Assembly (NCBI GenBank): GCA_036172245.1
Contig: JAYWIR010000033.1
Span: forward strand, 434,001-498,000
Source of the DNA: Raillietiella orientalis
Taxonomy: Eukaryota
Direction of reading: 5' to 3'
Length of the DNA: 64,000 nt
Part shown: piece by piece, positions 13,436 through 59,845 of the stretch
Layout of the letters: each line of letters begins with the position of its first letter
How positions within the stretch are numbered: the stretch's first letter is position 1
Notes under the pieces: generated by a model
The model's database searches: none
What the model saw: only the letters and a program-made list of their open reading frames with translations
Told to the model about the DNA's origin: nothing
Program-made: the position numbers and the translations under genes

Positions 13436-13448
13436 AAAAGGGGAAGAC

Positions 13449-21938: not shown

Positions 21939-22121
21939 CTAACAAATAAACTTATACAATCTGTGACTGGACCAATAGTCCAGCCACGCCCTGGAAAGAT
22001 ATAGCCTGCCGGGCTACCGGTGCGCAGACCGGCGCGGTCGACCTCGGCAGCAGAGGGGAGGAGGAACGAAACAAAAAGAAAACAAAAAATAAACAAAAAT
22101 CAGGGAGGGAGCGGGAAGGGA

Positions 22122-25712: not shown

Positions 25713-25714
25713 TA
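25710..25714 (-). promoter_or_regulatory. TAATG overlapping ORF1 stop / ORF2 start (translational coupling)
   Basis: Also at 20166-20170, 36997-37001 and 56002-56006; TAATA in E at 31334-31338. Confidence 0.8.
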
Positions 25715-27354: not shown

Positions 27355-27437
27355 TGCTGCCTAATCTTTCACCCACACCACGCACAAGCACCAACGGAAA
27401 TGAAACTCAGCTGCAACGAAAAGACCGGTCCGCTCGA

Positions 27438-36100: not shown

Positions 36101-38725
36101 CGGACTTCGGTCCCAAAACCCGTAGGTATGCGGTGCAGAGGGAACTGGACGCAGAACTCCTAGAGCGACCGCTTGAAGCGGTCCCAATCCTGGAGTGTCC
36201 GCAGCCTCAAGCTCCATATGAACGTGCGGAGATGTTCCGCCGCGTCCGAGAGCTTCAGCCAGTCTTCTGGGAGACGCCACGCTGTCGAGGGGGGGCCCCT
36301 GTCGCGCGCATGGATCTCGAGGACTAGCGCGCGATGGTCAGACTGCTCGCACGGTAACTTGCCGCGCCTGCCCACGCGAGGGCACAGGTGCTCGTCAAGA
36401 AACACGTGGTAAATGCTGTCTTCCATCCCCGGTGCACTGGCCAACAAATTACAGGTGTGCACCGTCATGCACACCTCGTTGACCACGTCTCGCTCGGGAT
36501 TCTGCCCATCTCATTTCAGACGAACGTTGAAATCGCCTGCAACCAGATGGGCATTCCGCACGCCTGCTTCAGTCAGCTAGTCTCGCCGGAGGGCAAGGAA
36601 AAACTCTTTCTTCGCCCTCCTGTTCATCAGGTCCGCGCCGCTCGGTGCGTACACGTTCGTGACGATCAGATCGATCGAGTCGGACCACCTGAGTGTCAGA
36701 TGGCCGACACGACCGTTATCGTCGAACCGTACGCCGCGAGCCGCGGCCTCGACGGCAGGCCGAAGCAGGTAGGCGACACCACAAGTTTTCGCTCTCCCAC
36801 ACCTGTACCATAGCCGCCCTCCGGAGATCCGTTCGATCTCTTGCGCTTGTTCTGCAGAGATCACGTGGATCTCCTGCAGCAGCGCAAGATCGTAGGACTT
36901 CAGAAGGGCGGCGATGTCTCGTCTCCTGCCGGCGTCTGTCATGCCGGTCACGTTCCTAACGGCGATGCGCAGACGACGGCAGGAGGAGATTCCCGGCATT
37001 ACTGCTGAGAAGATTAAGTTGTGGGGGAGCCCTCCTCTTGCGAGGCAGGCGGGATGTCCATGGGGCTTCCGGCCTTCTCAGGCACCTGAGGCACCTGTTC
37101 GGCCTCCACCCCCTCCATCCCCTCCGTGTCCGCGCGTGGGAGTCTCTCGGGCGATGGGTCCCGAGAGTTGCCCACGCTCATGGCACCCTCGCTTGCGGAA
37201 GCCATCTGTTCCCCTTCGACGGGGGAGACGAGCTTTCTTGTCTTTGTGGACTTACGTCTAGCCTTCTTGCGCGGTGCCGTGGAAACGGAGGCTGCATTTC
37301 CGGCCTCAACCTCGGGGTCGGAAGTGGGGAACTCCTGAGGCAAAACCGGACGCCTTACGGCCTTCTTGCCAGCCTTGAAGGGTTCTGGCTGCAATGAGGC
37401 GGCCAGTTCCTCCGCGGCTCGCGCGAAGGCTACGTCATCGATGGTGGTGTCGATGACGGACGCCGCCGCCGGCTCGCTCCCCTCGCTGTTGACAGTGTCA
37501 ACAGAGGGGAGGTCGTCGGTAGCGGCGACTTCTTTCCGGCAGCGTTCGGCAACGTCGAGAACGCGTTCGACAACGACGCTGCACTCTCTAATTATCGCGC
37601 TACCCTGCTCTTTCTTCTTTTGTTGTTAGGCGATTTTCTTTCCCATCCTCCTCTCCTTCTTTGATTTTTTGGCCTTTGCCATTTGCCACCCAGTCTTCTG
37701 GCTTGCTTTCTCAACTTTTTCGGCGTTGGTCGCCGTGGTCTTTGATGCGGCCTGTGTCTAGGGCGCGGGTGGCACAGGCTTCGCGGCAGCTTTCGCAGCC
37801 AGCCTTTTCTGCAGAAGCCGGGCGCGTTTTTTAAGGTTTCTCTTGGAAACCACCCGCTCTGCTGCTTTTGGGCACACTTTTTTCGTGTGACATATTGTGC
37901 CGCAAACTTTGCACTGCACATTGGGACGCCTCTTCTTGAGGTGACCCGACGTATTGCAGAAGCCACAGTGTTTCGGCTTCCCCACATACCAGAGGTCGAC
38001 GGTTTCGCCTTCGACCACCAGTTTGTGGGGAAGAGTGCAGCCCTCCCGAACGGTCACGCGCGCAGCAGTGAGGCCGTGTTGCAGCCCCGTGTAGTCTTTG
38101 GAAGGACTTACTTTCGTCCACTGCGCGTGGATCGTTCCGAACTGTTCCAAAGCGGCGCGAACCTGTTCTTTGTGCATTCGCGCGGTTACGCCTAATAGGT
38201 GGACCACCATGCTGCGGTCCGCCGTAGTGAGGAGGAGCCTGTGCGTCCTCATCACAACGGGGGTTTTAAGCAGTCGTTGGGCTAGCTCTGCATGTTTGCA
38301 GATGACCTCAAGGTACTGAATCCCGCTGCGGATGGTCATAGCGCTGAGCTCCTCCTCTTTCACATCGAGAGCGCGCATGCCCTTCGAGAAGGCGCGCGCG
38401 CTCCCTAAAGAATAAAAATTGCCTACCTTTTAGAACAATGAGGGGTTGTACCCCTCCTCTACATAGGCCGAGAATTCCGCCGCGGCTGCAGGCGTTGGCG
38501 GCGACACAACGGCGCTCCACGCCCGCGCTGCAGCGGGGATCGATACTGTGGGGGCGGATGCCCCCACCTCCATCGCCTCTGGGGACGGCGTTTCCGCTTC
38601 CCCCTGGCCATCCCTGGTGGTCGCGTCAGGCATCGCTTCCTGATCGACCACCGAAACACAGGACGCTATCACTAGGGGAAACTTCCTGGCACGAGGAGCA
38701 CCGAGAAAACACGTCCACCCTGGAG
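33198..38725 (-). mobile_element. Copy B3, full-length but chimeric (B'-type 5' half, D-type 3' half), degraded
   Basis: ORF1 from 38633 (MPDATTRDG); ORF2 36999->33424 in many pieces. The two junctions lie at different target sites. Confidence 0.88.
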
Positions 38726-38745
38726 CACACATAGCATTCGACTGC
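38710..38745 (-). promoter_or_regulatory. Putative composite core promoter: Inr-like GCAGTC (target-derived) plus DPE-like GGACGTG (element-derived) at +28
   Basis: A(+1) at 38743 and GGACG starting at 38716. Same spacing at 27458/27431 and 57774/57747. Confidence 0.5.
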
Positions 38746-40744
38746 GTCGACCAGGATCTCCTTATGGAGCTCCTGGAACGCATGGGTTTTCCATCCGTCC
38801 TCCGGTCTTACCTACGCTCCTGCTGGCGCAACGCGTATATCAATATTGGTTTCAGCGGCCGGCACGTGTACTGCGTGCCTGAGCGACGCGGCATTTAACA
38901 GGGTGACAGCCTGAGCCCCTTGCTCTTCAGCATCTACTTCGAGTTGGTGCTGAGGGCATACAGGGTAACTCTGGCAACTCTGCCGAGCTCGTGTGCCGGT
39001 ACGCCTGCCGTGTCGGCCTATGCAGACGATCTTCTGCTGCTGCTTCCCGGGTACACCCCGGCGAGTGCGCTCGAGGACTTCTTTGAAATGCTGCGCCGCG
39101 AAACGGGCCCTAAGGTAAACAGGGCGAAGTCGTTCATGGTCTTCGTCGGTTCGGCGTGGGCTGAACGGTCGGACTGGATCTTCTTGAGGATCCCCACGGG
39201 CAGGTGATTCAAGTACCTTTGCGTTCGGTTGGGGGACTTCTGCGCAGCAGAAGCCCTGTGCGACCGTCTCCAAAAGGCAGCGTTGGCGATTGGTCCGTTC
39301 CAAGAAAGCAAGTGCTACTTGCAAGAACGGGCCGCGGTGTGGAACGCGTTTGCGGCCCCCCTCTTTGGCCCCCTACTTTAGGTTTGCCCCGTCCCTTATT
39401 TCATTCCAAAACGAGCAGCGAACCTCCTGAGGACAGTCCTTTGAGGCAAAAGGAGGTCCCGTGTGAGGCTCAAAGACTTGTGCGCTCCACGTAAGGACGG
39501 TGGACTTGGCGTACTTACGCTGGAGCGCATGGAACTGCAACTCCAATTCAGGACGCTCGACCTCGCGGCCGAATTGTGGAACACGCCTTGATGCGTTCCA
39601 GCACGCCTCCTGGCCCAACGAGCCTGCGGATCCGGCAGACTTTTGTCGTTTCTGTCTGCGCGCGTCTGCTGAAGAGCACACTGTGGCTCCATGCTGCGAC
39701 GCATCCTCGTTGCGGTTCAAGAGAACGCCTGGATCTCCTGCCTTCCAGGGAACTACTCTGCCTGGTTGCACGAGTCAGTCTCCACCTGGGAAAAGATCCA
39801 CGTTCTGGCGAGCACAAGGAACACTTGCCTGAAAAGGTACGTCCGCTGGACGCTGCAGGAGATCGTGCAGTCCCACGACAAGCTTCTGTGGGCCTTGATA
39901 ACCCCCCTCGCCACATTGCTGACACTCCTTGTGAATGCCAGGGACAGTAGCAAGCAGGGGAAATGGACCGTGTCCTGCACGATAGGAGGCAGGACACAAT
40001 CGATAAAGGCGTGGACATCTCGGCAGCTAGCGGACCCTGCGACGCCGAGTGTCCCGCTTAACGGAATTCCACGCTAGAGCGAGCTACTCGGACTATCTCC
40101 GGAGGAGATGAAGTGGCCCCCAGCGTCCTGGAACAGTGCATTCCTCCCCCTGAAATGGCAGGATGTGGCGTTGATTGTGGTACTCTGGGGATAACCATTC
40201 AAAGCACGCCTGCACCACACCACCCGGGGGGCTGTGGATCCTAATTGTGACCGGTGTGGGGAAAAAGAAACACTCCCTCACCTTCTCCTTGATTGCAGAG
40301 CCGTCCGCCCTTTGTGGGATCGTCTCGCGGCGATCCTGGACTTGCGCGGATGCGGCATAAAGGACGTTTTAAGGAGCCTCTTCTGTAGTGACGCCCTGTC
40401 CCCGCCCGCTAGTGTAGCAGTCCTCTGCTGCATGAGAGGAATAGTGGCGGCTTGGAACGCCACCAGAAGAAGGCGTCAGCCAACCGGCAAAGCCTTACAC
40501 TGGACTCGCCTTTTCGCGCGCAGTGTCTGCAAGTGGCGCCACTTAGGCGCTAAAAGGACTCAGCTTGTGCGGATCCTTGACAGGATCTAGAGGACCTGTC
40601 CACGCGCACCGTGATCCCGTCCCCGCCCTCCCACCCCTACAACATTTGTTCCTCCCCACATTTGAGCTTTTGGTTCCTTTTTGTTTTTCTTTATTCCCCA
40701 TCCCCGCGCATCGGTAGGACCTCTCCGGCATGGAGCCGGTAACC
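38726..40744 (+). mobile_element. Element G, degraded 3' portion (RT from KAFD, zinc finger, partial 3' UTR)
   Basis: AFDCVDQDLL, SAYADDLLL (38920-39207), CDRC..LPHLLLDC (40234-40590). Confidence 0.88.
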
Positions 40745-40800
40745 AGCAAGCTGTTTTGGAGTGGTGAAACTTCGAGTTCGCCACTCCAAAACAGCTGGCT
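40745..40800. repeat. Inverted repeat, 24-bp arms (22/24 match), at the G/H junction
   Basis: agcaagctgttttggagtggtgaa ... ttcgccactccaaaacagctggct. Confidence 0.9.
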
Positions 40801-41416
40801 TTCTCCACATCGCGAAAACACTTGCGCATTTTTCCAGTACAGCGCGGGAGCCGTTCTCATCCATCCGCACTGTTGTCCATGTTAGGTGGACCACAAAAGA
40901 GTGGTCCACCGTGTGTGGGAGTGAATTCCTGCCCTCAAATTGTACAGGCGTGCAGAGCATTTTGTGGGTAAGAGCTGCATGCTTGCAGATGAGGTTCGCC
41001 AACTGCCCACCGCTGCGTATTGACAGGCAAAGAATTTCATGGTCGCCAATGCCTATCTTTTTGATGGCATTGCAGAAATTTCGCGCCCTTAACGGGGAAT
41101 ATAAATTTCCGACCTTGTACAGGAGGGCCGGATTGTAGCCCTCCTGGATGTAGGATTGTATCTCGGCGATGACATCGGGCGTTTCCGCCGCTGCCACCGC
41201 GCTCCAGGCCCTCGCCGTAGTGTCGGGGCAAGGTTCAGAAGTAGCAGTGGGGCGTGATCCCACCTTCTTTGGCTTAAGAGACGCGGTCTTCCCGCCTTCC
41301 TTACCTTAAATTGCGGCGTTCACAGGCATTTCGGCCTGTCAACGTCGGCGAAACACACTCGAAACACCAGACAAAAAACTCCCTATCCACGAAGCGCACA
41401 ATAATAGCGTCCGCCG
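40777..41416 (-). mobile_element. Element H, 5' UTR plus ORF1 N-terminal fragment
   Basis: RAWSAV..EGYNPALLYKVGNLYS..SIRSG is homologous to B/E ORF1. GGCGGACG motif at the 5' end. Confidence 0.8.
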
Positions 41417-41736
41417 TTTGTCAACCGATAAACCGAGATATTTATTATTTTGAATTGTTACAAAAATTAAATAATAAAGTCTTTAAAAAATGTTTTCTGT
41501 GGGAGAACACTGAGTTCTCCAGTGCACTCAAGTTCGGTTTTTATTGTGAAAGGTAAACGCCACCTTGTCGCCGTCTCCAAAGAAATCTTCGTCTAGTGGA
41601 TGGCGTCCCTGCATCTTAGGCCTCTTCTTCTTGCGTGCCACCTTTGCACAATACCGCGCAAGCAGCAGAAGACTGGTAGAGACGCAGCTGGGTGCAGGCC
41701 GTCACTCAGAAAGCGGAGACGGTAAATGTCCTTAGG
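41417..41736 (-). mobile_element. Element H2, short 3'-end fragment (ORF2 C-terminus plus AT-rich 3' UTR)
   Basis: FLSDGLHPAASLPVFCCLRGIVQRW resembles the ORF2 C-termini of B and G. Ends AATAAAtatctcggtttatcggttgacaaa. Confidence 0.7.
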
Positions 41737-42336
41737 TTCGCTCTCGGAGCTGCTTGTGCCAGCGGATTCCCCTGCGGTCGACGAGGAGGAACGCGCCACT
41801 CTTGACTTGATCTTCACGGCGGAAGAAGTGTCTTTCGCCATTGCGGGCCTCAAGAAGCGCAAGGCGCCAGGTGAGAATGGTCTGCCTGCGGAGTTCTTCC
41901 AGTGCTTCGCGGCGGAACTCATCCGCCTGGTGCTAAGGATTTCTGCGCTGATGCGAGAGACGGGCAATGTCCCGGCCTCGTTTCGCTTAGCAAGGGTGCG
42001 AGTCTTGTTTTAAGGCGGAGACATGCGCCATTTCAGCAACTGGTGTCCGATCACCTTGGTGAATGCGGACGTCAAGTTGTTCTCCAGGCTCTGGGTCGCG
42101 CGCCTAAGCAGGATCGCTGGATTCTTGGTAAGTCCGGAGCAGTCATACCCTGTTCCCTAGCGGTCCATGGAGGCGAACCTGTTCTTCGCGCGCACGTGGC
42201 TCGAGCTGTAACTTTGCGTGGCGCACGACAACCAGGCATCCGCATCTGCGGCTGCCAGGGCAAGGCGGCGCTTCATTTGGCCTGAGGAATTGCCAGGTGC
42301 CTTGGCCTCCACGGTAGATCTTCGCAAGGCGTTAGA
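41737..42336 (+). mobile_element. Element F (C-related), RT N-terminal part up to DLRKA(L/F)D
   Basis: KKRKAPGENGLPAEFFQCF, NWCPITLVN, TVDLRKALD. The frame resumes at 57757. Confidence 0.85.
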
Positions 42337-45300
42337 TGTTCACCCGGATTTCGCCGAGGCGTTCATTGTTCAATAAACATTCACAAAGACGTGCAGTGGC
42401 TGGATTATTGCTACAGCCACGCACGAAGAAACACATAGCCTGCCTGGTCACCGATTCGCAGACCGGTACGGTCCACCACGGCAGCGGGGGGAAGGGGGAA
42501 ATACAAAAAACAAAACAAAAAAGAAAAAAAAAGTTAATAGGGTAAGGGAAGGGATCACAGTTGCTGTTGGGGCCGTTGCATCCTTTGCAGGATGCCGGCA
42601 AGCTCCTTCCGTATTCCTGGATCCAGGTGGGGCAATCCGGACGCCCCCTCCAGGAACTGGGAAGCTTGCTGGATCGCATCCTGGTCGTTTGGTCCTCCCG
42701 TAGCCTTCCTCCAGGCGGCGACAATCCCGCAAAGGCAGCACAGGGATGCTAACGAGGTCGCTGACCGAATGGTGTCGGCAACGAAGAGAACTTTCAGCAC
42801 GTATCTGCAGTTGCCGCAGGGGATTTCGATGACCGCGGCAAAGCGGAGACAAAGGGGCCGAAAGGCAACAGAATCCACTAGCAGGTGGGGGAGGGACTCC
42901 CGTTCACTACACCTGACGCAATTGGGGTCCACCGATTCCCAGGTCCAGTGGTGACGGCGGGCGTTGCAAGGGAGTCCCCAGTACTGCAACAGAAATGCCA
43001 ACTCCAGCCATTTTAAGGAGAGGGTGGAGGTGTTCATTAGTACCGGGGGCCACTTCAAACGTTCAATGGGAACGTCGAGCAGCCCGCCCCAGCGAAGAAG
43101 ACCATGGAGAGTCGTACTCGGGGTGCGAGCGTCAGTCAGCTGACCCGTCTTCCACTCTCCTATCTTCTTCTCTTTTCCAGAGATCGTTACTGTAACCTCC
43201 CACTTCGCCGCAACATTGCTATCCAGATCTTCCATCAGAGAGGGCAGCGCAGCAGCGAGGAGTGTTCTTCCTGCCCACGCTCTCTTCTTTGCATCCCCCA
43301 TGATCTCTCAAAGCTTGCAACTTCTGTAACTTCCAAAAAGGAACCTTCGTTCCTGTTGAGAGCGTTGCATGCCGAACTGTCCCCACGTGCGAACGGTTTC
43401 CGGCAACCAGGCACTACCGTTCAAAGGGCGACAGGTGAACAATCCTGGGTTTTTCCGATACAGCGCAGCCAACCTCCGTAGCTAAAGTCCGCATCGGCTG
43501 ACGCGGCGGCGGAGTGGAAGAAACGACGCCAGTCCTGTCTTTCCGGTGGCTCGCTGGAGGAGAAGACGTGCAGGGACGCACCAACAGGTGCACTACAACT
43601 CTAAAACAAGTGCCGAAATTTGGAACTGGAACTGAAGCTCCAGCCGCTCCAGCGTCAGGAGCCCCAGACTACCGTCCCGACGAGGAGCGCACAGGTCCTT
43701 TAGACGGATTCATGCTCTCCTATTGCCCCAAAAAGCAATACGGAGGTGGTCCTCTGTCCGCTTTTTAATCCTCACTGTAGGGGGACAAAGAAAAAGCTGG
43801 GGACGGAGGAGAGGAGCCGCGAACGTGTTCCAAACCGTGGCCGGTTTAAGCAGGAAAAACCTGCCTCCTCGAAACGGGCCGATCGCTGTCTCTACATTTG
43901 GGAGGCAGCCGGACCACGCTTCCGCAGGGGAGTAGTCCCCCAACGGCACAGCAAGCTACTCGAAGTACCTCATCCTGGGAATCCCCAAACGGACCCAGTC
44001 CTGCAGCCCTGCCCACGCCGCACCAACTCGCATCACGGACGACTTCGCCCTGTTTACCGTAAGTCCTGTTCCGCGATACAGCAGGTCGAAGAACTCCTCG
44101 ACCGCCAAAGCCGCGGTGCACATAGGGAGCTAAAGCAGAAGGTCGTCCGCGTACGCTGAAACAAATGACGTACCGGCACAGTCGTGCGGCAGGTGCGCCA
44201 GGGTTCTCCTGTACGCTCTCAGTACCAACTCAAAGTAGGTACTGAAGAGCAAGGGGCTCAGGCTGTCTCCCCTTTGGATCCTACGCCGCACCGGCACGCC
44301 GTGCACGGTCTGCCCGCTGAAAGTAACGTTGATGAGCGCGTCGCGCCAGCAGGAGCGCAGATAGGCCACTAATGAGGCCAAGAAGCCCAAGCGTTCCAGA
44401 AGCTCCAGCAGGAGATTCTGGTCGACGCAATCGAATGCTTTCCGCAAGTCGATTGCGACCGCAGGGGCTCCCTCCCTCTCACGACCAAATAAACCCTAGC
44501 TGGCGCACGCACCGGAATTCCGGCTGCGCACCAAGCTCCTTTCATGTTGTAGATTTAGCCAGGTGGAAGCGTGGAACAGGTTCGCCTCCATGCTTTGCCA
44601 GGGAGCAGCATGTATCTGTTCCGAGCTGATGAAGATGTTGACAACCCGTCCGAACCTCTCTGTCTAAACCATAGCTAGCAACTTGGCATCCGCATTCACT
44701 ATGGTGATGGGACGCCAGCTGTTCATGCTTCTCAGATCTCCTCCCTTAGGGAGGAGCCTCAGCTTTGCCGAACGGAACGAGGCGGTAACGTCATCTGTCT
44801 CGCGTGTCACCAAGGTGAGTTGCTATAACAAAGGGGTAAGCTCAGCCGCGAAAGTTTGCTAAAAGTCCGCGGGTAGGCCGTTCTCCTCTGGAACCTTGCG
44901 CTCCTTCAGCTTCCCGATGGCCGAGAGGATCTTGTCCATCGTAAAAGGCTCGTCGAGGGTTTTTCTCTCCTCCTCTTCGATCGCTGGAGCGCCTTTTGGA
45001 GGCAGAAGTCGTAAAAAATTTCTCTCAGGAGGTGCCCTCGCATACAGGGAGGAGTAGTAACTTCGCAGCAGGCCGCGGATTTGGGCGAGTGCCGAGTGCT
45101 TTTGGCCCTGATCGTCCAGCAAGCTGGCCGATCCGGACTGACAGGCTTGTTTCTCGGCTCTCGCTTTGTATTCCGTTAGCCTGCGGATGTCGGCGGTCCT
45201 GGCGTAATGACGGGCCTGCACATAGGCTCGTTCGTTACGGAACCCGGTCCCAATACTCGTAGGTAGGCGGTGCAGAGGGAACTGGTCGAAGAACTCCTGG

Positions 45301-45986
45301 ACCGACCGCTTGAAGCGGTCTCAATCCTGGAGTGTATGCAGCCTGAAGCTCTGTAGGAACGTGCGGAGAGGTTTCACCGCTTCCGGGAGGTTCAGTCTGT
45401 CCCCTGGGAGACGCCACGCTGACGACGAAGGGCCCCTGTCGCGCGGATGGATCTCGAGAACTATCGGGCGATGGTCGGACAGCTCGCACGGTAACTTGCC
45501 GCGCCTGCCCACGCGAGGGCACAGGTGCTCGTCAAGAAACACGTGGTCAATGCTGTCTTCCATCCCCGCGGCACTGGCCAACAAAATACAGGTGTGCACC
45601 GCCATGTACACCTCTTTGAACAGGTCACGCTCGGGATTCTGCCCATCTGGTTTAAGGCGAACGTTGAAATCCCCTGCAACCAGATGGGCATTCCGCACGT
45701 CTGCTCCGGTCAGCCAGTTGCGCCGGAGGGCGAGAAAAAATTCTTTTCTCGCCCTCCTGTTCATAAGGTCCGCGCAACTCGTTGCGTACACGTTCGTGAC
45801 GATTAGAAACATCGAGTTGTACCACCTGAGAGTCAGGTGGCCGACGCGACCGGCATTATCAAACTGTACGTCCTTTATTGGGGCCTCGATGGCTTGCGGG
45901 AGCAGGAAGGCGATACCGATTGATTTCGTGGTGCCACAGTGCCACAGCAGCCGTACTCTTGCGATCCGTTTGATCTCCCGCGCTCG
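42337..45986 (-). mobile_element. Family B' copy B4, 3' portion (most of ORF2 plus 3' UTR)
   Basis: GDFN, IDH, SDH (45321-45812), RKAFD..AYADD (44130-44447), CVRC..LPHLLVD (42555-43301). Confidence 0.9.
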
Positions 45987-47344
45987 TACAATGCAGACGT
46001 GGTTTTGCGTCTATACGCGCTAACGATCGGGCAACTTCCTGCCTGCGTTTTCGCTCCCACTTCTGTGTTCCTGTGCAATCCTCTAAGTAGCATAGTGCAA
46101 CATGGCCAGAACACAGAATAGTGTAGAAGAGGAAGCCACTGGATGCACTTCAGCTGCACTTGAAGTGCCCGCAAACTCCGTAATGGTTTCCTCGCCCCCG
46201 GTGAGGAGTTACGCCGCCGTTACCTCTTAAAGGCCAGGACCCTGCGATGCGGAGTTTCAGGCATATGTGTCATTAGGATACATGCCTACACTCCGTTATA
46301 AGGTCAGTGGGCCCCTTAACGGGAGAATCGGTCGTGAGCTCAAAGATAAGCTCGTCCGGATCGGCGTTTGCGAGGTGGAACACCTTGCCATAATGCCTGC
46401 TGGCAGGATGGAATATACGAAGATTCGGTGCAAGGACGCAGCACTTGTGCAGTGCCTTCTCCGTACGCCGTTGACCATCAACGGCAAGGAAGTCCTACCT
46501 ACCGCGATGGACGACTCTTTGTCGTTCAATTGTGCGACATCGAACCGGAAATCTCCGATCGCGATGTGGTTAGCGTGCTGGCGAAGTTTGCCACCGTGCA
46601 CGCCCTGTGGGTGAGGCCGAACCCTGTGTAGGATTTCTCCTTTGTCCACATCGGAGAAACCTCCGCGCGGATCACTCTCATGAACAGGCGTGTTGTGCCT
46701 TAGCAGCTGCTGGTGAACGGCATGGTCGTTCACCTGTGGTTCATAGGTCAGACTCACGCGTGCGAGCAGTGCGGCAAGGATGGGCACCAAATTAAAGAGT
46801 GCCCCTCTCCAAGATGCCGCTATTGCAAAGATTACGGGCACGAGATCAAAAAGGGCCCGGTACTTACAAAAAAAGGAGCCGCAGCGGAAATACGTCGGGT
46901 TCAAGAGACCACTGCACGAAAAGCCGCAGCGGCAAATAAAAAAAGATCGACCGTAAAAACTCGGAAGGAACAACGAGCGATCCGAGGATCAAAAGAAAGC
47001 TTCCCGCCCGCAACGCCCCGAAAAGGAAAAGTCACGGCTGGAAAGCCAATTAAAAAGGGGCGCGAGGGTTTGACGCGTGCTGTGCCCTCCCTCGCTGCCG
47101 AACTCGCAGGCACCTCTCCGAGCCACGTACTATGAAATCTTTGTAACAGCCTTGAGGGGAAAGTAGCAAAACAGGAAGATCGCTACAGTACGAAGAATTC
47201 TTGCCCCGTTCCGTTGTCCCTTGAGTTCCGGACAGCCCCGCTGCAGCGCAGGCCCCTTTGCAAAGGCTACGAAAGCCGTAAAAAGCAGCGTCGCGACGAG
47301 CAAAGGCACGCTGGATGCAGTCGCCCCATCGCCGACTCGGCAGG
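45987..47344 (+). mobile_element. Family C copy C2, 5' UTR plus ORF1 up to the A target
   Basis: GYMPTLRYKV, CEQCGKDGHQIKEC, CRYCKDYGHEIKK. Ends in TCGCCGACTCGGCAGG. Confidence 0.9.
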
Positions 47345-50300
47345 TTTCTTCAAGTCCCACAATGGCTGAAGTAAATTTATTTTTCAGAAATTTTTGTGCA
47401 AAAGCATTCATACTACAGTCTCATTCATACAATTTGAGCTGTTTTTACCACTCCGAAGTCCATGGGTTCACAAGTTCTGCACTCATGGCGCGTTTCCTGC
47501 TGTTTGGTTTCGGGCGTTGTCTTTTATCCACTTCAGGATGAATCCCTACGTCCAGGCTTGGATTTCCGTACAGTTTCTAATCCCGATTTTGCTCTAGAGA
47601 AGCCCTTGTAGGACCTCCATCGTTGATTCGGCTCTTCTGGCATTCCTCATTTTTCACCACCGCACAAGTATGGCGGTGATGAAGAGGGTGATGGTCGTCC
47701 TCACCATGGAATTGTAACAGGGAACATTACCATCCCCCTGAAACATCTAGGCGAGGATCTCCATCACGGATCTGTTCGTGAGACCGATGATCCTTTGCAG
47801 GATTAGCTAGTCATGCACCAATGTGGGACACGTCAAGGGGTGAAGTCTCGTGTCGTTGTCTCCACATGGCGTCCTGTCTCGAACTTCCCGTCTTCCGGTA
47901 TAGTACTGCGATCGGGATCCACTCTGGATTCTTCCATGATGAAACATCAGGAGGTCATCCTGCGTGCCCGGCGGAAGGTCACTCCTTTAAAGAATCGTGC
48001 AGATCGCTAGCAGCTTGATGCAGTCTCCTCCGTAGCGAACGGCGGCTTCCTGGAGGGCACAGATGTCACGGTCGTCTTCCCGAATTAATCTTCGTAGGTT
48101 TGTTTTGAATACCCTGGACCACGCGAAGTCGTTGTGGTTGATCCACACCTCGCGGGTCATGTGGGCAAACCTTCCAAACATTATCTCTATATACCTAAGT
48201 ATAAGAGAGCGATGTAGGTACCCTCCTCGTTTCTACTCCTGCATTCGTTGCACGGTAACTTTGGACCGCTGGTGGATCCAGCTTCTCGTGTCCGGCAAGA
48301 CAGCAAGCATCTAAATGATCACCAGGATGCACTCGTCCTGCCAGAGTTCCCTACTTCTCCTCACGATCTTGATTTTGTGCTTTCGCACCAGCCGTGTCTT
48401 CCTCGTCCTGGTTGGGTCGATTTTTTTCCATTCGCCTGCTCGGCCTAGCAGCGCAGTCATCAGGCCTTTCGAGTTGTTCAACCACAACGCGTAGGCCCAG
48501 TGCGCCGCATGCGGCCAGTCATCTCAGTGAGTGGCAATGTCCAGGATAGCTCACGTATCCATGATTTCTATGAAGTGTGCAAGCGACTTCATCCCGGAAC
48601 CGCCCTCTTCCCTGGGACGACACAGGGGTTTTAGTCGAACTCTTGGGCGATAGTGGTCCCACAGTGTTTTTCTATTCAGCTTGTCAAACTCCCTCGTGGT
48701 GCCCTTGTTCATCCTCGCCAAGGCCGCTCCGAAGAGCACTTTTGGAAGCAGTACTCCGTTCCATATGTTGGCCTTTCACTTCATTCCAAGGTCCGTTCGG
48801 GTGTACTTGGCTGCTTCCTTGGCCGTTTTACTCGAGGATCTCGGTCCACAATAGCTCCGACGCGGAGACGTCGCCAATGTAGACACCCAGGTACTTGGCC
48901 TTGTCCACCGTTCGGAATCCTCTCCCGCTAGAGGGAAGAGATCGAGAATTCCAACGGGCAAGAGCTGGCTTTTCTGGGGGTTGATCTTTAGACCCAGGCC
49001 TTGATCCATCAGGTCAACCACATCCAGAAACGCTCGTTGATTTCTCTATCCCTTGATAAAGAAGAGTAGATCATCAGCGTATGCCAGATGAATAAGACGC
49101 TGGCCATCGATTGTTATGCCTTTAAGTGGTCGGCTCTTCTCGATAAAGGACGACAACGCCTCCATGTAGATGACGAACAGCATCGGACTTAGCGAATCGC
49201 TTTGCCGGACTATCCGTCCTATGCGGATTACTGCCGTCTCCTGGCCGTTGATTTCTGATTCGGAAGTACTGGTTCTGAAGTACCACCCTCACGAGGTTGC
49301 TGAAGTGTTCCCGAAGGCCTAGCTTCTCCAGAACCTTCAGCAGCATCCCATGGTCGATGGAGTCGAAAGCCTTCTCCATGTCAGTGAACACCAGCTCCAG
49401 GTTTTCGGCGACGTATCGGCTGAGTCCAACAATGGCCTGTGCACACTTGACATTGTCCGACATGTGACGTCCAAGGACTGCACACGTTTGCACCGGAAAG
49501 ATGAGCTTCGACATGACCCTGCCTAAGCGGTTGGACCAGATCTTCGCCAACCACTCGACATTGGAGTTCAGGATTGAGATTGCCCTCCATTGAGCGATCT
49601 GGGTTGGGTCGCCTCCTTCCGGCAACAATCTCATCCTACTCTTGTAGAAGGATTCAGGTAGTCTGTTTCTTCACGGATCCATAGGGTCAACTGATGAAAC
49701 AAGCGCAAGTAGGCATGCAGATACCGCTGATAGTGCGTGATGGGTACACTGTCAGAGCCCGCCGCCACATCCTTGCGCAGTTGTCCAAAAGCAGTCTTCG
49801 CCTCGTCTTCGGAGAATTCGTTCTCCAGTCTGTTTCGCTGGAGGTCGTCGGTCCTCTTCTCGAGATAGCTCAGAAAGGCTTGTTGACTAGAGTGACAAAG
49901 ATGTGTTCGCTTGAAGTGTTTCGTGTAATGCCTGTGAAACGCTTCCACGATGTCCTCAGACGACTGTCGCTTTTGGCCGTCGTACTGGATGCAGAAGATA
50001 TCTGTTGCCAGATTTCTCTTCTCCAGCACGCCGACTTCCCCTTTTATGTTATTGAGGACGTACCCACTCTCGTACTGACCGAAGTACTTTGAGAGTAAGT
50101 GATTTTGGATGTTCAGCTACCGGTACGCCTCCTGCCTCAAGCGCCTATCCCCTAATTTCATATTCGCAAACAGGTGTATCCTGTGTTTCAAGCTGTCCGA
50201 GTCGGCGAATTTTCTGATTTTGGTGGTCTTCAGAATCGTCTTCAGAACATCCTGATGTAAAGGATGTGTCACGAACTAGGCGGGCATGCTGATGAGCGCC

Positions 50301-52893
50301 GCCCTGGTGCCTTGCCTCCACCGAGGATTCGGCGTTCTTACGGAAAACCGCACCAACGGGTGATCAGACAGAGTAGTCAACGTGTCTCGAAAACCCTGAA
50401 TGCGATTCCCTAGTTCGGTGCTGTGCAGGACGTGATCGATCGGCTTGTGACTGGCTGTTCGCCACACCAGTCCGAGCTCGTCGGACAGCCGCCGATACTC
50501 CGTCCTTCCTCTGGCGTCTTGGGAATGACTGATCTCATCCAATATGTTGAGATAGCCAGCAACAATCACGTCGTCCTTGCGGCGACCTTTTCACGAAGTG
50601 CTGCATGCAGCGTCTCCGCCCAACGATGTTTCAGCCTGTGCGGCCCGTACACGTTTACCAGCTTAAGGTAAACAGTAGCGGACCAGCCCAATCGCACGCC
50701 GATGATTCGTCCGTGTTGGGGACAGAACACTTCCAGAATAGTTGAGGCCAAGTGGTTCTTGATTAGGACCCCCACACTCTGCGTGTTCCTTTTTTCCTCG
50801 CTGACGAACATGTGCCTGTTGAATCGCAGTTCCATTTACTGACTAATCTCGCGACCCATCTTGTGGGTCTCCTGCTGGCACACTATGTCTTGTTGTGCAA
50901 TGGTCCGCACAATCCTTTTTCTTTTTCCCTGGCCGAGCACACCCTTTACATTTCAGGAGGCGATGTTCAGCCTCCTGGCGGTCGATAGGGAAGAGGCCAT
51001 AAAAGGGGGAGACCTATTTCTTGGCCTTCCTGAGTCTCTTTTGTCTGAGAGAACGTGCTCTTCCAGACAATGAAGAAGCAGCTGGCTTCTCGCTGCTGGC
51101 GGCACTCTCAGTTCCTGTGAGGTCGGTTATTTCCGCTTCCTCCGTCAAGTGTTCGGCCCGCGCGAACAATTTTCGAGATAGCGCCACTATCTCGACCTTG
51201 GCGCAGAAGTTGGTTTTTAAGTCGAGAAGCTGTTCCTCTAGCTTCCCGCGCTTGGTGACTTCCACAAACTGGTTGACCTTCTCCTGTGCATTGCAGAACT
51301 TCTGGAAGATTTTCTCTTGCTGGGAATCGCTGTGCACCTTTAAGACTTCATTAGCCAGTTATGCCAACTTCTGTGTAGATTGCAGGGCCTCTTGCGACAC
51401 CGTAGTGGCTTCGGCTATTTCTTCTCCCGCGCCTTCCGGCGCTAGCTCCATCTTCTCGCCTTCTTGCTCTTCACCTTCCAGGATAAGAAAGGTTTCTTGC
51501 TCCTTGACGTGCATGCTCCTTTTTTTTTTCTTCCCTACCTGTATGAATCCGTCTTTCTATACCGGGAGGGCTTCTTTCAGCTTCTTCGGTCTTCCTGCAT
51601 TATGAGGCTGTTTCGCATCCTTAAGGTTTCTCTCTCTCCCGGGAGAGAGACCTCGAATCCTTCTGCAGTCTGCAAACTCTGGACAGCTTCATTTGGCATG
51701 TCCGTGTTTCTTGCAGAAGGAGCACACCTCCGGCTGCGGGCAGTTTAGGACTTGATGTACTACTCTGCCGCAGTTGAAACAACCACACGTTGGGCAAGCG
51801 CTGGTCTGGTGGCCGAACTGCTTGTATCCGGTGCAGAATACCGGTTGTTCCCGGTGATCCACGTTCACTCCCTAGGATTGTTCGTCGAGAACGGCTAATC
51901 CAGGGATCACAGCTCCCTCTTTCAACTTCATTTTGGCGATTATGTCGCTGGAAAATTATATTTTTAGAGAACTTCTGGAATTCAAGGGCCAGAACTTCCC
52001 CGTACTGTTCCAAAAAGTTCCACACCGTCAATTGCGGTATCAGGGTGGAGTTGCCGTTCAGAAAGACGGTTGTGAATGGCATTTCGCCAATACCACGAAC
52101 CATCCTCCCTTGTATATTGATCCCCTTCTGGATCAATCGCTTTCTAATATTTTCACAGTCTGTGAAGAATGTGAACCCGTTGTTTGCTGGTATGATCGCC
52201 TGTATGGGATCAAAATTGATGTCCGTTTTGACCGAGGGACAGATACACCTCCCTGATATTATTGAACTTGATCAGTTCAGTCTTGAAAATGATAAGCTTC
52301 ACATTCGGCCCTAACTCCACGATCGGCCGATCCACCTTTTGGACTTTTCCGCATAGCGACTTCCCCAATTCTCTTGGCGGGTGGACACTCGCTTTTCCAG
52401 CCGCCACCGACGCATAGGAAAAGGGCTGCGCCGCCGCAGTCGAACAAAATGGCGTCTCGCCCTGCACCGCGTAAACGCCCGCGGGTCCAGCCTGGGACGA
52501 CGACGCCGTGAGCGCAACCGTCCACGTCGCCACCGTTGCTGCAGCGGGCATCACCCTCGGCATCGCCGCCTCAGGCACGACCTTCCCGGCCGCGGGCACG
52601 ATCCTCGGCGTCGCCGCCACGGGCACGACCCTTGGCATCGCCGCCGCCGGCGCAGCAATGCCCGCCGCGGGCGCGATCCTCGGCATGCCTACCACCGCCT
52701 CGCCGTTGCCCCACGTTATTTCCATGGCTTCCATGGAGGACGACGGTCTTTCCACTCGTCCTCCAGGTGCCTGCATCCTGGCAGCTGGTCTTGCTGCACG
52801 GGACGACAGCAGGTCTTCCGCCGTGATCTTCTCGGCGCTTCTTTTGTAGTTTCGTCTGGAAAACTTCCCTTGTCCGGGCTCACACGATCACAA
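47345..52893 (-). mobile_element. Family A copy A4, degraded, about 50 nt shorter at the 5' end, TSD on both sides
   Basis: Colinear with A2/A3: ORF1 52776->51014, ORF2 from 51000. TSDs at 47329-47344 and 52894-52909. Confidence 0.93.
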
Positions 52894-55840
52894 TCACCGA
52901 CTAGGCAGGAGACGAGGAATCTCTCGACTGTCAAGAAGGTGACTTCGTTGCCGTTTGTTGAAGGCGTAGCGAAAGCAACGCCCTCAGAGAGAGCAGCGAA
53001 AATCCCGGAGGTTTCCGCAACTATTGTCGCTCAAGCCTCCGGAAATAGCGAAGTCGAATGGAAGGATGTGGAAAGGAGGAAAGAAAAATCTCCCAAAAAA
53101 GCTTCGCAACATCCACCCTTGAGCTCTTCCAAAGAAAAAAGCAGTCGCGGGAATACGAAAACACGCGCGGCTTGTGCCTTTTCTCAGGAAAGCCAGCGCC
53201 TTTAACGCGTGCAAGTCCGCTTCTGTGACCGCCCAGAAGACCATTCCGGTGCAATCGGACGGATGCAAGCGCACTTCGATCGTGCGAGCATCACACTACG
53301 CAAAGGAGTCCCATAGCGCCGCTGAACGAGCGCCCGATCACATTAGTGAATTCGGACGTCAAGTTGTTTTCGAAACTTTTGTTGGCGCGGACGGGTAGGA
53401 TCGCGGAATCCTTGGTAAGTCCTGAGCAGACGTACGCTGTTCGTGGGAGGTCCATGGACGCGAATCTCTTGTTCATCCGCACATGGCTGCAATTGCAGCA
53501 TCGTCTGGCGGTAAAACGTCGTGCGGAAGCGACGCCTTCGATCTTCCATCGATTGAGGCGCGGGACGCAAATGGAGACAACGGAAGCCTTGGCGGTTGCA
53601 GTCGATTTGCACAAAGCTTTCGATTGCGTGAACCAAAACTTTCTTCTTGAGCTTTTGGAACGTCTGGGTCTTCCGGCATCCCTGTTGGTGTACTTGCGCT
53701 CCTGCTGTCGCCACGCGATTACATCCATTGTTTTCAGTGGCTGTCGCGTGTATAGCGTGCCGGTACGACGAGGAATTAGGCAGGGTGCTAGCTAAAGCCC
53801 GCTGCTCTTCAGCATCTATATTGAATTGGTACTGGAGGCTTACAGGCTGACGCTAGCTAATCTGCCGAGCTCCTGTCCAGGTACGCCGGCCGTGGCAGAC
53901 TATGCCGACGACCTGCTTCTCCTGTTGCCCATGTCTATCCCGGCGACATCGCTTAAAGACTTCTTTGAGTTGATTCGTCGCGGTGCGGGCGTGAGCGTTA
54001 ACAGGAGTAAGTGTATGGTTGTTCCGGTGGGTGCGACGTGGAAGGGGCAGTCCGACTGGATCGACTTTGAGATTCATACGGGCAGGTACCTCAGGAACTT
54101 TGGCGTGCCGTTGGGCGACTTCTGCATCTCAGAAGCGTAGTCGGGCTGCCTTGGAAAGGCAGAGCGTGCACTTGGCCCGTTTTCAGGAGGCGAGTGAGTC
54201 TTGTGGGAACGTGCCTCCTTGTGGAACACCTTCGTTGCCCCCTCCTCCGCCTCCTGGTTTTTGTTTGTGCACTCCCCCAGGAAGTCAAAGTTTGGGCGCA
54301 GCGCCTTCTACGCAAAGCATTGTGGGGCGCTGCAAGATCCCGTGTTAGACTTAGAGACTTAGTGGCGGCGCCTCAGGATGCAGGCTGGGGCATCCTAGAC
54401 TTGAAAAGCATCGAGCTGCATATGCAGTTTCTAATGCTGCGGCTCTGTGCCAAGATTTGGTGTACGCCGTGGTGCTCACCCGCACGACTCATTCTAAGGC
54501 GCTGCACGGGAAGCGAGGGACTGCTTTCGTTGCTACCTTACTTTCGGCACACAAGAATAGGGTTTGGCTTCCCGCCGAGGCAGCTGTTCTCACTGCTGGA
54601 AGTCCAACGCTGGATATTTTGCCGCCCCATGAACATTAATGCGTGGCGGCAGTAATCTTCTTCATCGTGGGCAGCTTCCGAAGGAACGCCTTCGAAAGAT
54701 CTTCGATGCCTGCGACTTCTTTTCAGTCATCAAATGGACGGAGTCATGAAGGACAAGAAGATGTCGGATCATCTGGCCGCCACACCACTCGCCGCAGCGC
54801 TGTCTGCTTGCAGGGCAAGCAACGACGGTTGCCTATCGGCGGAATGGGAGTTCTTCTGCAAAATAGAGGGAGTCAGTAAGCTTCTCGGCAGCTGGACGAC
54901 AAAGTAGCTGGTGCAAGCAGCCACTCCTCGGAATCAAGCGAAGGGCCTGCTTTGATGCAGCGAACATTTAAGTGTGCATCTTGAGGAGATAGAAATTCCC
55001 CCCGTTTATTTGGACAGCTTCGTGTTTCTTCTACAGTGGAAACAAGATGTGCACAATGTACAAAATTTTTGTACATTGTGCATCACACTGTAATAAACAG
55101 CGAAGTATCGTTTCCGAGGGAGCTGCTTTGCCAAACTGTTTAAGGTGCCTAGAGATCGAGTCTTTTCCGCACCTTTTGCTGGACTGCGGTGACCTCCGGG
55201 AACTTTCGCGAAGGCTCACTTCGGCCATTATGCTACAAGGAGGCACTGCCATTGATGTGCTGCGGCGCTTCTTCAGCAGAAATGGACGTTTGGTTGGCGC
55301 GATTGCCGAAACCATATGTTGCGTTCGCTCCATCGTGAAGGCTATCTACGCCCTGGAGTTGTCAGCGCAGCGAAGGTGGGCTAGTCTGCTTGCAGCTTAA
55401 TTCATGGAGAAGGCTTAAAGGTGGTCTCATCTTCGTTACAAGGTGAAAGAGGACATCACCGGCCTACATCGCCGGTTTTCATACCTTTGAGAACGGCGTA
55501 ATCTGGTGACCCCTGCGACCTCTCGCCCACCTATACTAAGTCTCCGTTCGCTCGGTAAAATTTCCGGTGCCCATGCCTTTATCCCCGTGTCTTCCAGAGC
55601 GATCCCAAAGACCCTTATCCCGTCCTCCTTATTCATGTTTTCATTTTATTTTGGTTTCTTTGTGTTCCCCGCCCTCCCCACACCGTCCGCAAAACTGTTA
55701 CTCTTGCCTGCGTGCCAGCAATATTCTCTTTATTCTTGTTCGGTCGTCCATTGGAAGTTTGGTTCCCAACTGATTTATTTTACATGATTTTTTTTGTTGA
55801 TGTAATATGCAATAAACGCCCCGTCTTGACCACGTAAGAA
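52894..55840 (+). mobile_element. C2 3' portion, with an internal deletion that removes the APE
   Basis: Matches C1 15404-15870, then C1 17497-20004; YADD near 53900. Confidence 0.92.
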
Positions 55841-57756
55841 ATCTCTTGCGCCTGTTGTGCGGAGATCACGTGGATCTCCTGCAGCAGCGCAAGTTCGTAC
55901 GACTCCAGAACGGCGGTCATGTCTCGTCTCCTGCCGTCGTCTGTCATTGCGTTCACGTTCTAAACGGCGTTGCGCAGACGACGGCAAAAGTAGATTCCCG
56001 GCATTACTGCTGGGGAGATTAAGGTGTTGGGGAGCCCTCCTCTTCCGATGAGGGCGGGATGTCCATGGTAGTTTCGGCCTTCTCAGGCACCTGAGGCACC
56101 TGTTCGGCCTCCACATCTTCCATCCCCTTCGTGTCCACGCTTGGAATTCCCTCAAGCGACGGGTCCCGCGAGTTTCCCACGCTCATGGCACCCTCATTCG
56201 CAGATGCCATCTCTTCCCCCTCGACGGGGGAGACGAGCTTCCTCGGCTTTGTGGACTTACGTCCAGCCTTCTTGCGGGGTGCCGGGGAAACGGAGGCTGC
56301 GCTTCCGGCCTCCACCTCAGGGTCGGAAGTGATGGACTCCTGAGGGGAGGCCGGACGCCTTACGGCCGTTTTGCCAGCCTTGCATGGTTTGAGCTGCAAC
56401 AAGGCCGCCAGTTCCTCTTCAACTCGCGCGAAGGCTACGTCATCGATGGTGGTGTCGATGACGGACGCCGCCGCCGGCTCGCTCTTCTCGCTGTTGACAG
56501 AGTCAACAGAGGAGTGGTCGCCGGTAGCGGCAAGTTCTTTCTGGCAGCGTTTGCCAACATCGACAACGCATTCGACGACGAAGCTGCAGATTTTAATTAT
56601 CGCGCTAACCTGCTCTTTCTCCTTCTGTTGGTAGGCGATTTTTTTCTCCAACCTCCTCTCGTTCTTTGATTTTTTGGCCGTAGCCACCTGCCACCCATGC
56701 TCCTGGCTAGCTTTCTTGACTTGTTCGGCGTTGTTCGCCGAGTTCTCGGGTGCGGCCTGGGCCTTGGGAGCGGGTGGCACAGCTGTCTCCGCCAGCCTTT
56801 TCTGCAGAAGCCGGGCGCGTTTTTTAAGGCTTCTCTTGGAAACCACACGCACTGCTGCTTCTGGGCACACCCCCCTCGTGTGACCCATTGTGCCGCATAC
56901 TTGGCACTGCACGTTGGGACACGTCTTTTTGAGCTGGCCCGACGTTTTGCAGAAGCCACAGTATTTCGGCTTCCCCACATACCAGAGGTCAACGGTTTCG
57001 CCTTCGAACACCAGATTGTGTGGAAGAGTGCACCCCTCCCGAACGGTTACGCGCGAAGCCGTGAGGCCGTGTTGCAGCCCCGTGTAGTCCTCGAAAGGAC
57101 TAACTTTCGTCCACTGCGCGTGGACCGTTCCGAACTGTTCCAGAGCAGCGCGAACCTGTTCTTTGCGCATTCGCGCGGTTACGCCTAACAGGTGGACCAC
57201 CATGCTGCGGTCTGCCGTAGTAAGAAGGAGCCTACGCGTCCCTATCACAAAGGGGGTTTTGAGCAGTCGTTGGGCAAGCTCTGAATGTTTGCAGATGATC
57301 TTAACGTATTGACTTTCGCTGCGGATGGTCACAGCGCGGACCTCCTCCTCTTTCACATCGAGAGCGCGCATGCCCTTCGAAAAGGCGCGCGCTATCTAAA
57401 GAATAGAGATTGCCTACGTTGTAGAACAATGAGGAATTGTACCCCTCCTCTACATAGGCCGACAATTCCGCCGCGGCTGCAGCGATGGCGCCGACACAAC
57501 GGTGCTCCACGCCCGCACTGCAGCGGGGACCGATTCTGTGAGGGCGGATGCCCCACCTCCATCGCCTCTAGGGGCGACGTTGCCGCCGCTTCCTGGCTCT
57601 CCTTCGCTTCTGGGGGCGGCGTTGCCGCTGCCCCCGGGCCATCTTTGGTGATCGCGTCAGGCATCGCTGCCTGATCGACCACCGATCCACACTACGCTTG
57701 CACTGGGGGAGACTTCCTGGCACAAGGTGCACCAAGAATACACGTCCGCCCTGGAG
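55841..57756 (-). mobile_element. B4 5' portion (ORF1 plus APE start)
   Basis: ORF 56019-57371 with CGFCKTSGQLKKTC and CQVCGTMGHTRGVC. ORF2 ATG at 56004. Confidence 0.92.
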
Positions 57757-59845
57757 TAAGAAAGGCGGTCGACTGCGTATATCAGGATATCCTCCTGGAG
57801 GTCCCGGAACGCCTCGGGCTTCCGGTGCACCTCGTGGCGTATATTCGCGCTTGTTGGCGCCACGCACTAACTTTCATCCCTTATAGCGGCTGCCACGTGT
57901 ACAGCGTGCCGCTGCGGCGGGTCATCAGCCAGGGCGACAGTTTAAGCCCATTGCCCTTCAGCATCTTCTTTGAGTTGGTGCTAAGTGCGTACAGGCTGAC
58001 GCTGGTCAACTTGCCGAGCCTTTGTCCAGGAACGCCTTTTGTGGCGGCCTATGCTGACGACCTGCTTCTTCTTTTACCCATGAGCACCCCGGCGTTCAGT
58101 CTCGAGGATTTCTTCGAGCTGATTCGCCGGGGAGCGTACGTGAGCGTAAGCAGGAGCAAGAGAGTGGTTGTACCTATTGGTGCTGCGTTTAAGGGGCAGT
58201 GCGACTGGATCCGCCTGTGGATGTCGACCGCTTCGTCCACTCAAAATCTGGGCGATCCGCTGGGGTGCATCAGCCCAGTGGAAGTGCGGTCGGACTGCCT
58301 TCGGAAGGCTACGAGTGCGCTGAGCCCGTTCCAGCATGGCAGGTTCCTCCTGTCGAAGCGGGTCGCGATATGGAACACTTTCGTTGCCCTTCTTTTGCGC
58401 CCTCTGTTTTTGGTTAGCCCGCCAACCTACTCGGTGAAGATTCAGGCGCACAGCCTGATTAGGAACGCTTTTTGGGATCCTGCGAGGTCCAGGACCCGCC
58501 TGAAAGCCTTGGCAGCTCCACGACGGGATGCTGGCTTAGGCATTCTGACGCTGGAGAGAATCGAGCTGCAGGTGCATCTTCGAATGTTGGCCCTTTGCGC
58601 CAACGTTTGGTCCACTCCTTTCTGCGCTCCTGCGCGCCTGCTCCTGCGGCGCTGCACCGGCAGCGAAGGACTTCTGTCGCTGCGTCCGCACACGGAGCAC
58701 CCCACGACAAGATTCGGTTTCCCTTTGAAACCACTCTACCGGATCCTGGCACCCCAGGAAAGGATCTCCTGCCGCCTCAGGAAATTTGAAGCCTGGCGGC
58801 AGGAACCGTTGCATGGCTGGGCAAAGCACCAGGATGTTTCCCTCCTGGAACCCTGTTGCGTTCACCTCTCCCCGTAATGCAGGGTGGATGATGTCTGAAG
58901 CAGCCAGGAGAAGTGGACCCCCCTGGCCGTCACCCCTCTCGCCGACGCACTGTAAGCCCTCAGGGTAAGAGATGACAGCTTCGAACCGGCGAGATGAGAG
59001 GTCGCCTGCACCATTGGAGGAACAACACGACCTATTGGCGGCTGGAGGACTTGCGAGCTGGCAGACGCCGCCACGCCTATTCACATCTCGAAGGGACTCC
59101 TCCGGTAGAGCGAACACTTGAGTGTGTCCGCCGAAGAACTTGTGATCCCTCCCTCTTGTTTGACACTTCTGCCTTCCCCCTTTCGTGAAAGCAGGACTTC
59201 ATCATGGTGGTGCATTGGGGTTTTGACTCCAACCAGCAGAAGAACCGTGTTTCCGGGGGAGTTGTCTACTTAAACTGTAAGCGGTGCGGGGAAATGGGAA
59301 CGCTTCCGCACCTGCTTATGGACTGCAATGCCCTTCAAGGACTTTGGCGGAGGCTGGCCTCAGCTCTCCTGCACCAGGGGGACACCGCGAGGGACTTGAT
59401 GCGCCGCTTCTTCACGCCAGGCGGCCTGTCTATGAGTGCTGTAATTGCAACCGTGTGTTGCACCCGTGCCAACGACAAGGCCCACCGAGAGTTGGAGAAG
59501 CTGACCATTCATCCTCAGACCAACTGATTAGCCAGCACAAGCATGTCGTCGGCTGCCGAGTGGGCCCATCTGCCACAGGACGTAAGGAGAGAGATCGTCG
59601 GCATCTATCGCCGGTTTTGAATGGAAGGAACGGACTCGCCAAAGACCCCTCTCCTCTGCCCACCATATTTTTATTTTACATTTTTATAGTAGTGTATTTG
59701 TGGTTCCCTTTCTCCCGTAGCGGACTTTCGCCATAACGACCTGCGTGTCGGGGATCCCACCCCCTTTGTATCTTGTTTTCCCCATTGTGAGGTACCCTGT
59801 TCTCGGATAGTTCTTAACAAACGCCTTGGAGCACTCAAGTTACAA
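57757..59845 (+). mobile_element. Element F 3' portion (RT from KAFD, zinc finger, 3' UTR)
   Basis: ORF 57825-58877 with SQGDSLSP and AYADD; CKRC..LPHLLMDC (59204-59527). Confidence 0.9.

Follow-up and report, generated by a model that had tools for sequence, protein, structure and literature searches.

The window analysed here, a stretch of 64,000 nucleotides (positions 1-64,000), is a nest of L1/Tx1-type LINEs in which two copies of a family designated B' lie in members of sister families, one of them interrupted in turn by further elements. The host is an invertebrate animal, judging by an HSP70 encoded in its genome that shares 87-88% identity with named proteins of arthropods and molluscs. 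The features on which the argument rests are the following.

57758 to 42337, minus strand: B' copy 2 overall, its endonuclease (EN) interrupted by a family C element, which holds a family A element
55841..57758, minus: 5' part of B' copy 2 (5' UTR, ORF1 of 458 aa, EN start), 82-93% identical to the full-length B' copy L096 in 250-nt windows
42337..45983, minus: 3' part of B' copy 2 (EN-RT-zf, 3' UTR, terminal CCCGG/CCGGG hairpin)
57759..57772, minus: 5' copy of the 14-bp target of B' copy 2, a donor-type leader with a TCGACC allele that recurs across different hosts
57741..57747, minus: DPE-like GGACGTG of B' copy 2, a putative promoter element
57774, in host sequence: Inr-like CA(+1)GTC, 27 nt upstream of the DPE-like GGACGTG, its function likewise putative
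57759..59830, plus: 3' half of host F (RT from RKAVD to the 3' end), 87% identical to intact F copies
41700..42336, plus: 5' half of host F (...DLRKALD), with the catalytic Asp codon (D600 equivalent) at 42317-42319
42323..42336, plus: 3' host-derived target copy, codons R-K-A-L-D
45984..55840, plus: internally deleted family C element, sitting antisense near aa 83 of the EN that belongs to B' copy 2
47345..52893, minus: family A element inside ORF1 of C, with a target duplication (TSD)
34600..38727, minus: B'-derived part of B' copy 1, 84-96% identical to L096
33201..34500, minus: E/D-type 3' end joined onto B' copy 1, which is thereby a chimera; 82-91% identical to E and 51-66% to B', ending at the GFG target at about aa 324
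38728..38741, minus: 5' target copy at the junction with host G; DPE-like motif at 38710-38716, Inr-like +1 at 38743
38728..40740, plus: 3' half of host G; the corresponding 5' half is situated about 14.7-15.6 kb to the left of position 1
21909..27449, minus: element of family B, the sister of B', in a D-family host at its QDWD site

Both host halves that flank B' copy 2 belong to family F (87-90%), the 3' half opening with RKAVDCV, and the target duplication (42323-42336 / 57759-57772) is 14 bp long with 4 mismatches. B' copy 1 joins host G at 38727/38728, with the nick position at 38741/38742, and the missing halves of the nest, the 5' half of G included, were found left of the window in the expected order. 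A preliminary description of this DNA had placed B' junctions at 42336/57757 in host F, which we recover, and at 38726 in host G, which is 1-2 nt off (true 38727/38728) and belongs to a chimeric copy. Because that copy is B' only to about 34600 and then continues as an E/D-type 3' end, 38726 marks a real B' 5' junction that has no 3' junction of its own. The fusion within the chimera (33201-38727) lies near 34550, and the intervening part of host G is absent; the simplest account would be recombination between B' and E-type copies inserted in the same G host. Elsewhere in the nest, internal deletions are seen in C at 53329/53330, where ORF1 is joined to RT, and in A at 63436, where it is truncated against the EN of C. 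Between the 3' end of host G and the 5' half of host F (40740-41700) lie a short ORF1-like fragment and an AT-rich piece, the start of which is also present twice left of the window.

Across the genome, B' insertions lie antisense in the RT of sister LINEs, at one exact base in the K-A-F-D codons of about ten host families. Among non-redundant full-length B' 5' junctions in all fetched DNA, 83 of 84 are at the target base, the 84 (from 86 rows, 2 family B rows being dropped) comprising 76 in RT hosts, 7 tandem and 1 without an RT host. A DNA search placed 30/30 B' 5' loci at the same base, the window copy and two duplicate pairs included, and a pattern search with 114 matches did so for 30/30 of those listed. 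On the 3' side, 87 of the first 100 listed of 142 ends (in contig order, classified by eye) are at the target base, a share that applies to copies with the exact 3' 17-mer only; among three B' copies with a variant 3' end, two are off-site, and on the large contigs C1-C9 the on-site share is lower (14/20, with 6/20 off-site). The same 100 ends divide into 69 in host RT, 14 tandem, 4 re-insertions at the site and 13 off-site, and the 69 are distributed over D-group (20), I (12), F (10), K (8), B/B'-type (6), H, G and C/J-like hosts (3 each) and two minor families (2 each). The proposal drawn from the window, that B' inserts at this RT motif of diverged hosts, holds genome-wide, and junctions are not spread along the RT, since only two B' 3' ends within LINEs (L039 and L042) lie elsewhere than at the target base. 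The accompanying suggestion that many lineages share the target is not supported in that breadth: the roughly ten host families are sisters within one local radiation, and the distant family A hosts none of the 66 assigned 5' junctions and none of the 69 host 3' junctions (the latter by eye).

These insertions are independent. Among 66 junctions there is no pair in which both host and element are at least 97% alike, and 121 of 172 near-identical B' element pairs sit in hosts less than 80% alike. The TPRT signature of 5' truncation with TSD is present in B', with a true TSD of 14-15 bp, and every off-site copy (13/13) is 5'-truncated, flanked by an exact TSD of 11-15 bp in 12 of 13 cases and by one with a single mismatch in the thirteenth. 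Off-site copies keep the core GCA(C/G)^TCGA, with GCAC upstream of the nick in 5 of 13. The idea that the TCGA at 3' ends is derived from the element was ruled out, as off-site insertions have TCGA in each of their two TSD copies, with one starting ACGA. At two loci, G000:C14:225498 and L182, the insertion at the RT site is flanked by a TSD and spans hardly more than the terminal hairpin of B' (about 27-30 nt). L105, where a full-length B' joins a D host at one end and a K host at the other, is probably a product of recombination between copies.

The nick falls inside the second Asp codon of KAFD, the equivalent of D606 when aligned to L1; the same alignment equates the first Asp with D600 and the Phe with F605, which in L1 are the catalytic residue and the gatekeeper, respectively (PMC10830420). 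The TSD spans (H/R)-K-A-F-D and leaves the D600-equivalent codon just outside, so the catalytic aspartate after which the motif had been named is not part of it. The motif is constrained, as had been supposed, with a mean nucleotide conservation across host families of 79% over 27 nt versus 33% in a variable stretch upstream. The further suggestion that hosts cannot easily mutate it away fails, because codon variants, several of them synonymous, are far less occupied. There are 1034 motif sites genome-wide, and 17 of the first 100 listed are occupied: 13/39 of those with AAG-GCG versus 4/61 of other variants (p=8e-4; by eye, with family age as a confounder), and 0/19 of B/B'-type sites (by eye, with the same confounder). 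B-type hosts are nonetheless used occasionally, in 6/69 host 3' ends and 3/66 assigned 5' junctions. Judged from these nucleotide patterns, the target appears to be DNA and not a protein motif. The 9-mer core alone is insufficient to account for the 87%, since it is too common, with 5583 occurrences in the genome against the 1034 motif sites.

The full-length copy L096, elsewhere in the genome, has an open EN-RT-zf frame of 1215 aa, and the best PDB match of its ORF2 is human L1 ORF2p (E 5e-45). The EN has its catalytic residues, and L1 EN is the top structural match of its model. A zf-RVT domain was detected in sister B (E 9e-5, below the curated cut-off) and zf-CCHC in ORF1 of A and E; ORF1 of B' has CxxC motifs and no Pfam match. 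The span from GDFN to IDH in the EN is 37 aa versus 58-60 in six homologs, about 21 aa shorter, and the pLDDT of this segment is 35-38, so that the model is unreliable there. We set aside the statement that the EN lacks the hairpin: the segment is shortened, and alignments can place the residual loop on the bB6-bB5 hairpin. The segment before IDH differs between sister families, whose ENs are 37-55% different, and a loop in this region has been assigned a role in target choice (PMC1950540), with which a variable residual segment would fit.

Over their full length, the nearest database proteins are 25-31% identical, the top named ones being fish LINE proteins at 29%. Among 1.84 billion representatives in the protein database, a single protein of 106 aa came up as a close relative at E <1e-30, and the other genomes searched held no look-alikes. 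B' is best described as an L1/Tx1-type APE non-LTR retrotransposon, a broad label that is not meant as strict placement in the Tx1 clade. Its 87 of 100 listed 3' ends on site lie above the share of flanks (>20%) by which target preference is recognised in PMC4494074.

B' is one of a set of families with comparable habits. In about 520 kb of cluster DNA, 57 3' ends group into families with fixed sites, at about aa 83 (C), 91 (F), 180 (sense, EN GDFN), 298 (B), 324 (D/E), 381, 473, 496, 515 and 597 (B'), with ORF1 sites besides (H; A), and all fixed-site families are antisense except the GDFN family. That B and B' are related and differ in target is confirmed, their ENs being 63% identical at the amino acid level and 9/9 B 3' ends (8 tandem) lying at the QDWD site at about aa 298. 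Genome-wide, 1121 exact-pattern copies carry the lineage 3' end, and among the first 100 listed (all on C1-C4, judged by eye) about a quarter are recognisably at LINE sites and about three quarters are dispersed; with only this quarter at LINE sites, the sister families have preferred rather than exclusive sites, B' being one of the stricter of them. Family A (about 30% EN identity to B') occupies positions 1-15419, 47345-52893 and 61229-63436 of the window, with a tandem array of three copies; it uses one site in C-type ORF1 with a 16-bp TSD, and 7 of the 8 3' ends seen are at that site, tandem counted. In the C76 and C101 blocks, sense insertions lie at the EN catalytic GDFN codons in 8/8 3' ends, one tandem (for example G000:C76:229135, 259136 and 304267). 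Sister 3' ends have no poly(A) and read AATAAA-n-CCCGG-loop-CCGGG followed by a short family-specific tail. Considered as a significant fold, this 3' hairpin was rejected, not exceeding shuffles in 4/4 ends (z -1.2 to +0.7), and is a conserved inverted repeat only.

The 5' junctions of full-length copies carry a second kind of information. Eleven full-length copies have both junctions and match the reference at 93-96% identity; their two TSD copies differ in every case (22/154 positions), and the host family on the two sides agrees in 10 of 11. The 5' TSD copy reads TCGAACGCCTTG in 8 of these 11 regardless of host. The letter at TSD position 13 goes with element position 15 and not with the host (p=9e-12, n=65), and the C of the TCGACC allele occurs in 7/43 B' junctions. 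In D and I hosts, CGC is found in 0/16 intact copies, yet 9/35 junctions have the non-host letter; five junctions show that of the host, which is what a heteroduplex open to resolution in either direction would produce. The leader is present in L117, which has no RT host. Taken together, a mostly donor-derived origin of the 5' "TSD" of full-length B' appears well supported, although gene conversion between copies could likewise homogenise 5' junctions. A logo of B' flanks, which had been recommended, would mislead on the 5' side, because that side is largely donor-derived.

Sister-family 5' ends share (A/G)GACGT(G/A), the motif that served as search anchor, and DPEs are reported to lie at about +28 to +32, with CGTG at +25 to +28 in L1Tc (PMC4748587). 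Since the DPE-like motif of B' comes after only about 9 nt that are specific to the element, +1 would fall in target DNA at either spacing. With the +28 spacing, +1 is the A of host CA(G/A)TC, and C|A stands at -1/+1 in 41/43 B' junctions; of about 16 families or subtypes, 6 have CA at the exact spacing (p=3e-4, though these are not independent) and about 10 are without it. The CA(+1)GTC in host DNA is what we take to be Inr-like, going by the general Inr consensus. On this basis the B' RNA start site may be set in host DNA by the DPE-like motif. The CA in B' is, however, simply part of the conserved target, which counts against the promoter reading. In two full-length copies, Rfam gave no ribozyme match at E up to 1, a chance snoRNA match aside, in a search that can miss diverged ribozymes.

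Our best explanation, which we consider probable, is that B' is an autonomous element of about 5.55 kb (ORF1 and an APE-RT-zf ORF2) whose target preference is strong without being absolute, and that it belongs to a set of more than ten sister families that each seem to prefer their own site in LINE ORFs. The junctions show the host sense strand nicked at TTCGA^(C/T)(T/A)GC in the F-D-C codons, with TPRT starting there, which is why B' is always antisense; a second nick, also read from the junctions, follows 14-15 nt away. The APE endonuclease may read the core GCA(G/C)^TCGAA and prefer the extension ...CGCCTT, with host clustering raising the on-site rate further. EN-based recognition is an assumption here, given an EN about 21 aa shorter than its homologs and a model that is unreliable in that segment. 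RNA from full-length copies very likely begins in flanking DNA and takes along about 14-16 nt from the target copy of the donor. The cDNA end would then anneal to the new target and so yield precise 5' junctions that bear donor letters, as has been proposed for R2. The start might be set by the element's DPE (GGACGTG) together with the Inr-like CA(+1)GTC, supplied by host Asp-Cys codons read antisense, in which case a copy would gain its promoter by landing at the site.

Alternatively, the RNA-borne target copy, as 5' leader and/or 3' read-through, could pair with target DNA and add specificity beyond the EN core, a new site becoming heritable after landing. A donor-derived leader, a core too common for the on-site rate, a shortened EN in all sisters and more than ten targets within one radiation would all suit such RNA-assisted choice, and there is a tendency for leader and host family to agree in type (F 7/10 vs D 10/30, p=0.066). 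We nevertheless regard it as rather unlikely, for a single leader type occurs in many host families, 3' TSD copies follow the host (one starting ACGA), and the GCAC shared upstream of the nick by 5/13 off-site copies is not explicable by a 3' RNA tail. The sister ENs, moreover, differ by 37-55%, with the variable segment where the specificity loop lies (PMC1950540).

A second alternative would need only an EN that reads a short motif of about 8 bp, chromatin clustering and purifying selection, B' surviving mainly in LINE-rich heterochromatic clusters. The off-site copies, all 13 short and 5'-truncated, are what one would expect if long ones were purged, and among the first 100 lineage 3' ends listed, all on C1-C4, about three quarters are dispersed (by eye), which points the same way. 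Within hosts, however, one base is used in 69 cases against two other places, and codon variants outside the core shift occupancy sevenfold, which makes this scheme distinctly improbable to us. Least credible, to the point that we give it hardly any weight, is the amplification of a few ancient composite units of host plus B' by duplication or co-transposition: a few flanks are indeed duplicated (L012=L013, L006=L017, the C11/C13 and C12 pairs), but about ten host families are involved, near-identical B' copies sit in hosts less than 80% alike, and truncated copies of many lengths occupy the site.

Going beyond an autonomous element with a strong preference, one could imagine a guild of sister LINEs that has partitioned its own conserved ORF codons, the RNA-borne copy of the last target sealing the 5' junction and helping to choose the site, and host codons supplying the initiator. 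We think this broader picture doubtful. If it were true, target identity would be inherited via RNA and would be re-programmable in an APE-type LINE. With more than ten related APE endonucleases whose preferred sites are mapped, LINE target change becomes directly testable, and R2-style homology-guided 5' joining would be extended to an APE LINE. On the promoter reading, the promoter of a new copy would become complete at the target only. These LINEs disable their relatives, while B' largely spares its own codon variant. A literature search, outside which most subscription papers and Repbase Reports fell, returned no report of LINEs targeting the codons of sister LINEs.

Several known systems share parts of this arrangement. 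DPE-type internal promoters are described for jockey, Doc, G, I, F, SART1, TRAS1 and L1Tc, and B' resembles these in a CGTG-containing motif near the 5' end that is kept across sister families (PMC4748587); it differs in that about 9 nt of element-specific sequence precede the motif and the start would fall in target DNA. Zepp and ZeppL of green algae are likewise L1-type LINEs in nested clusters, but the portions of the sources consulted describe for them one centromeric cluster per chromosome and no fixed nucleotide target (PMC3446292, 10.1101/2025.03.28.645958), whereas here there are several clusters per contig (in a contig-level assembly), many dispersed copies and an animal host. R2 RNA retains up to 36 nt of upstream 28S sequence, whose annealing has been proposed to yield uniform 5' junctions, and B' is similar in that target sequence appears to be carried on the RNA, with donor letters at full-length 5' junctions (PMC3774820). 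R2, on the other hand, has a restriction-like endonuclease, an rDNA target and an HDV-like ribozyme, while B' RNA seems to be started by Pol II from within the flank.

The closest likeness is to target-specific Tx1-clade LINEs, which share with B' the layout of ORF1 plus APE-RT-zf, another transposon as target, a TSD of about 15 bp, tandem re-insertion and the use of different positions of one host by different families (PMC4494074). The examples given there include Tx1L in Tx1D, Tx1-Mar in Mariner-N4_AMi and Tx1-9_AMi in Harbingers, as well as Tx1-8_Crp and Tx1-4_AMi, which target LTR elements, and SINEU-2B has target-derived 5' extensions as B' does (PMC4494074). B' departs from them in that its targets are coding codons in sister LINEs that belong to the same radiation, common to about ten host families, and in that its nearest database proteins are only 29-31% identical and its EN is about 21 aa shorter. 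B' behaves as do the target-specific Tx1 LINEs whose insertion sites are other transposons, with an R2-like carry-over at its 5' end.
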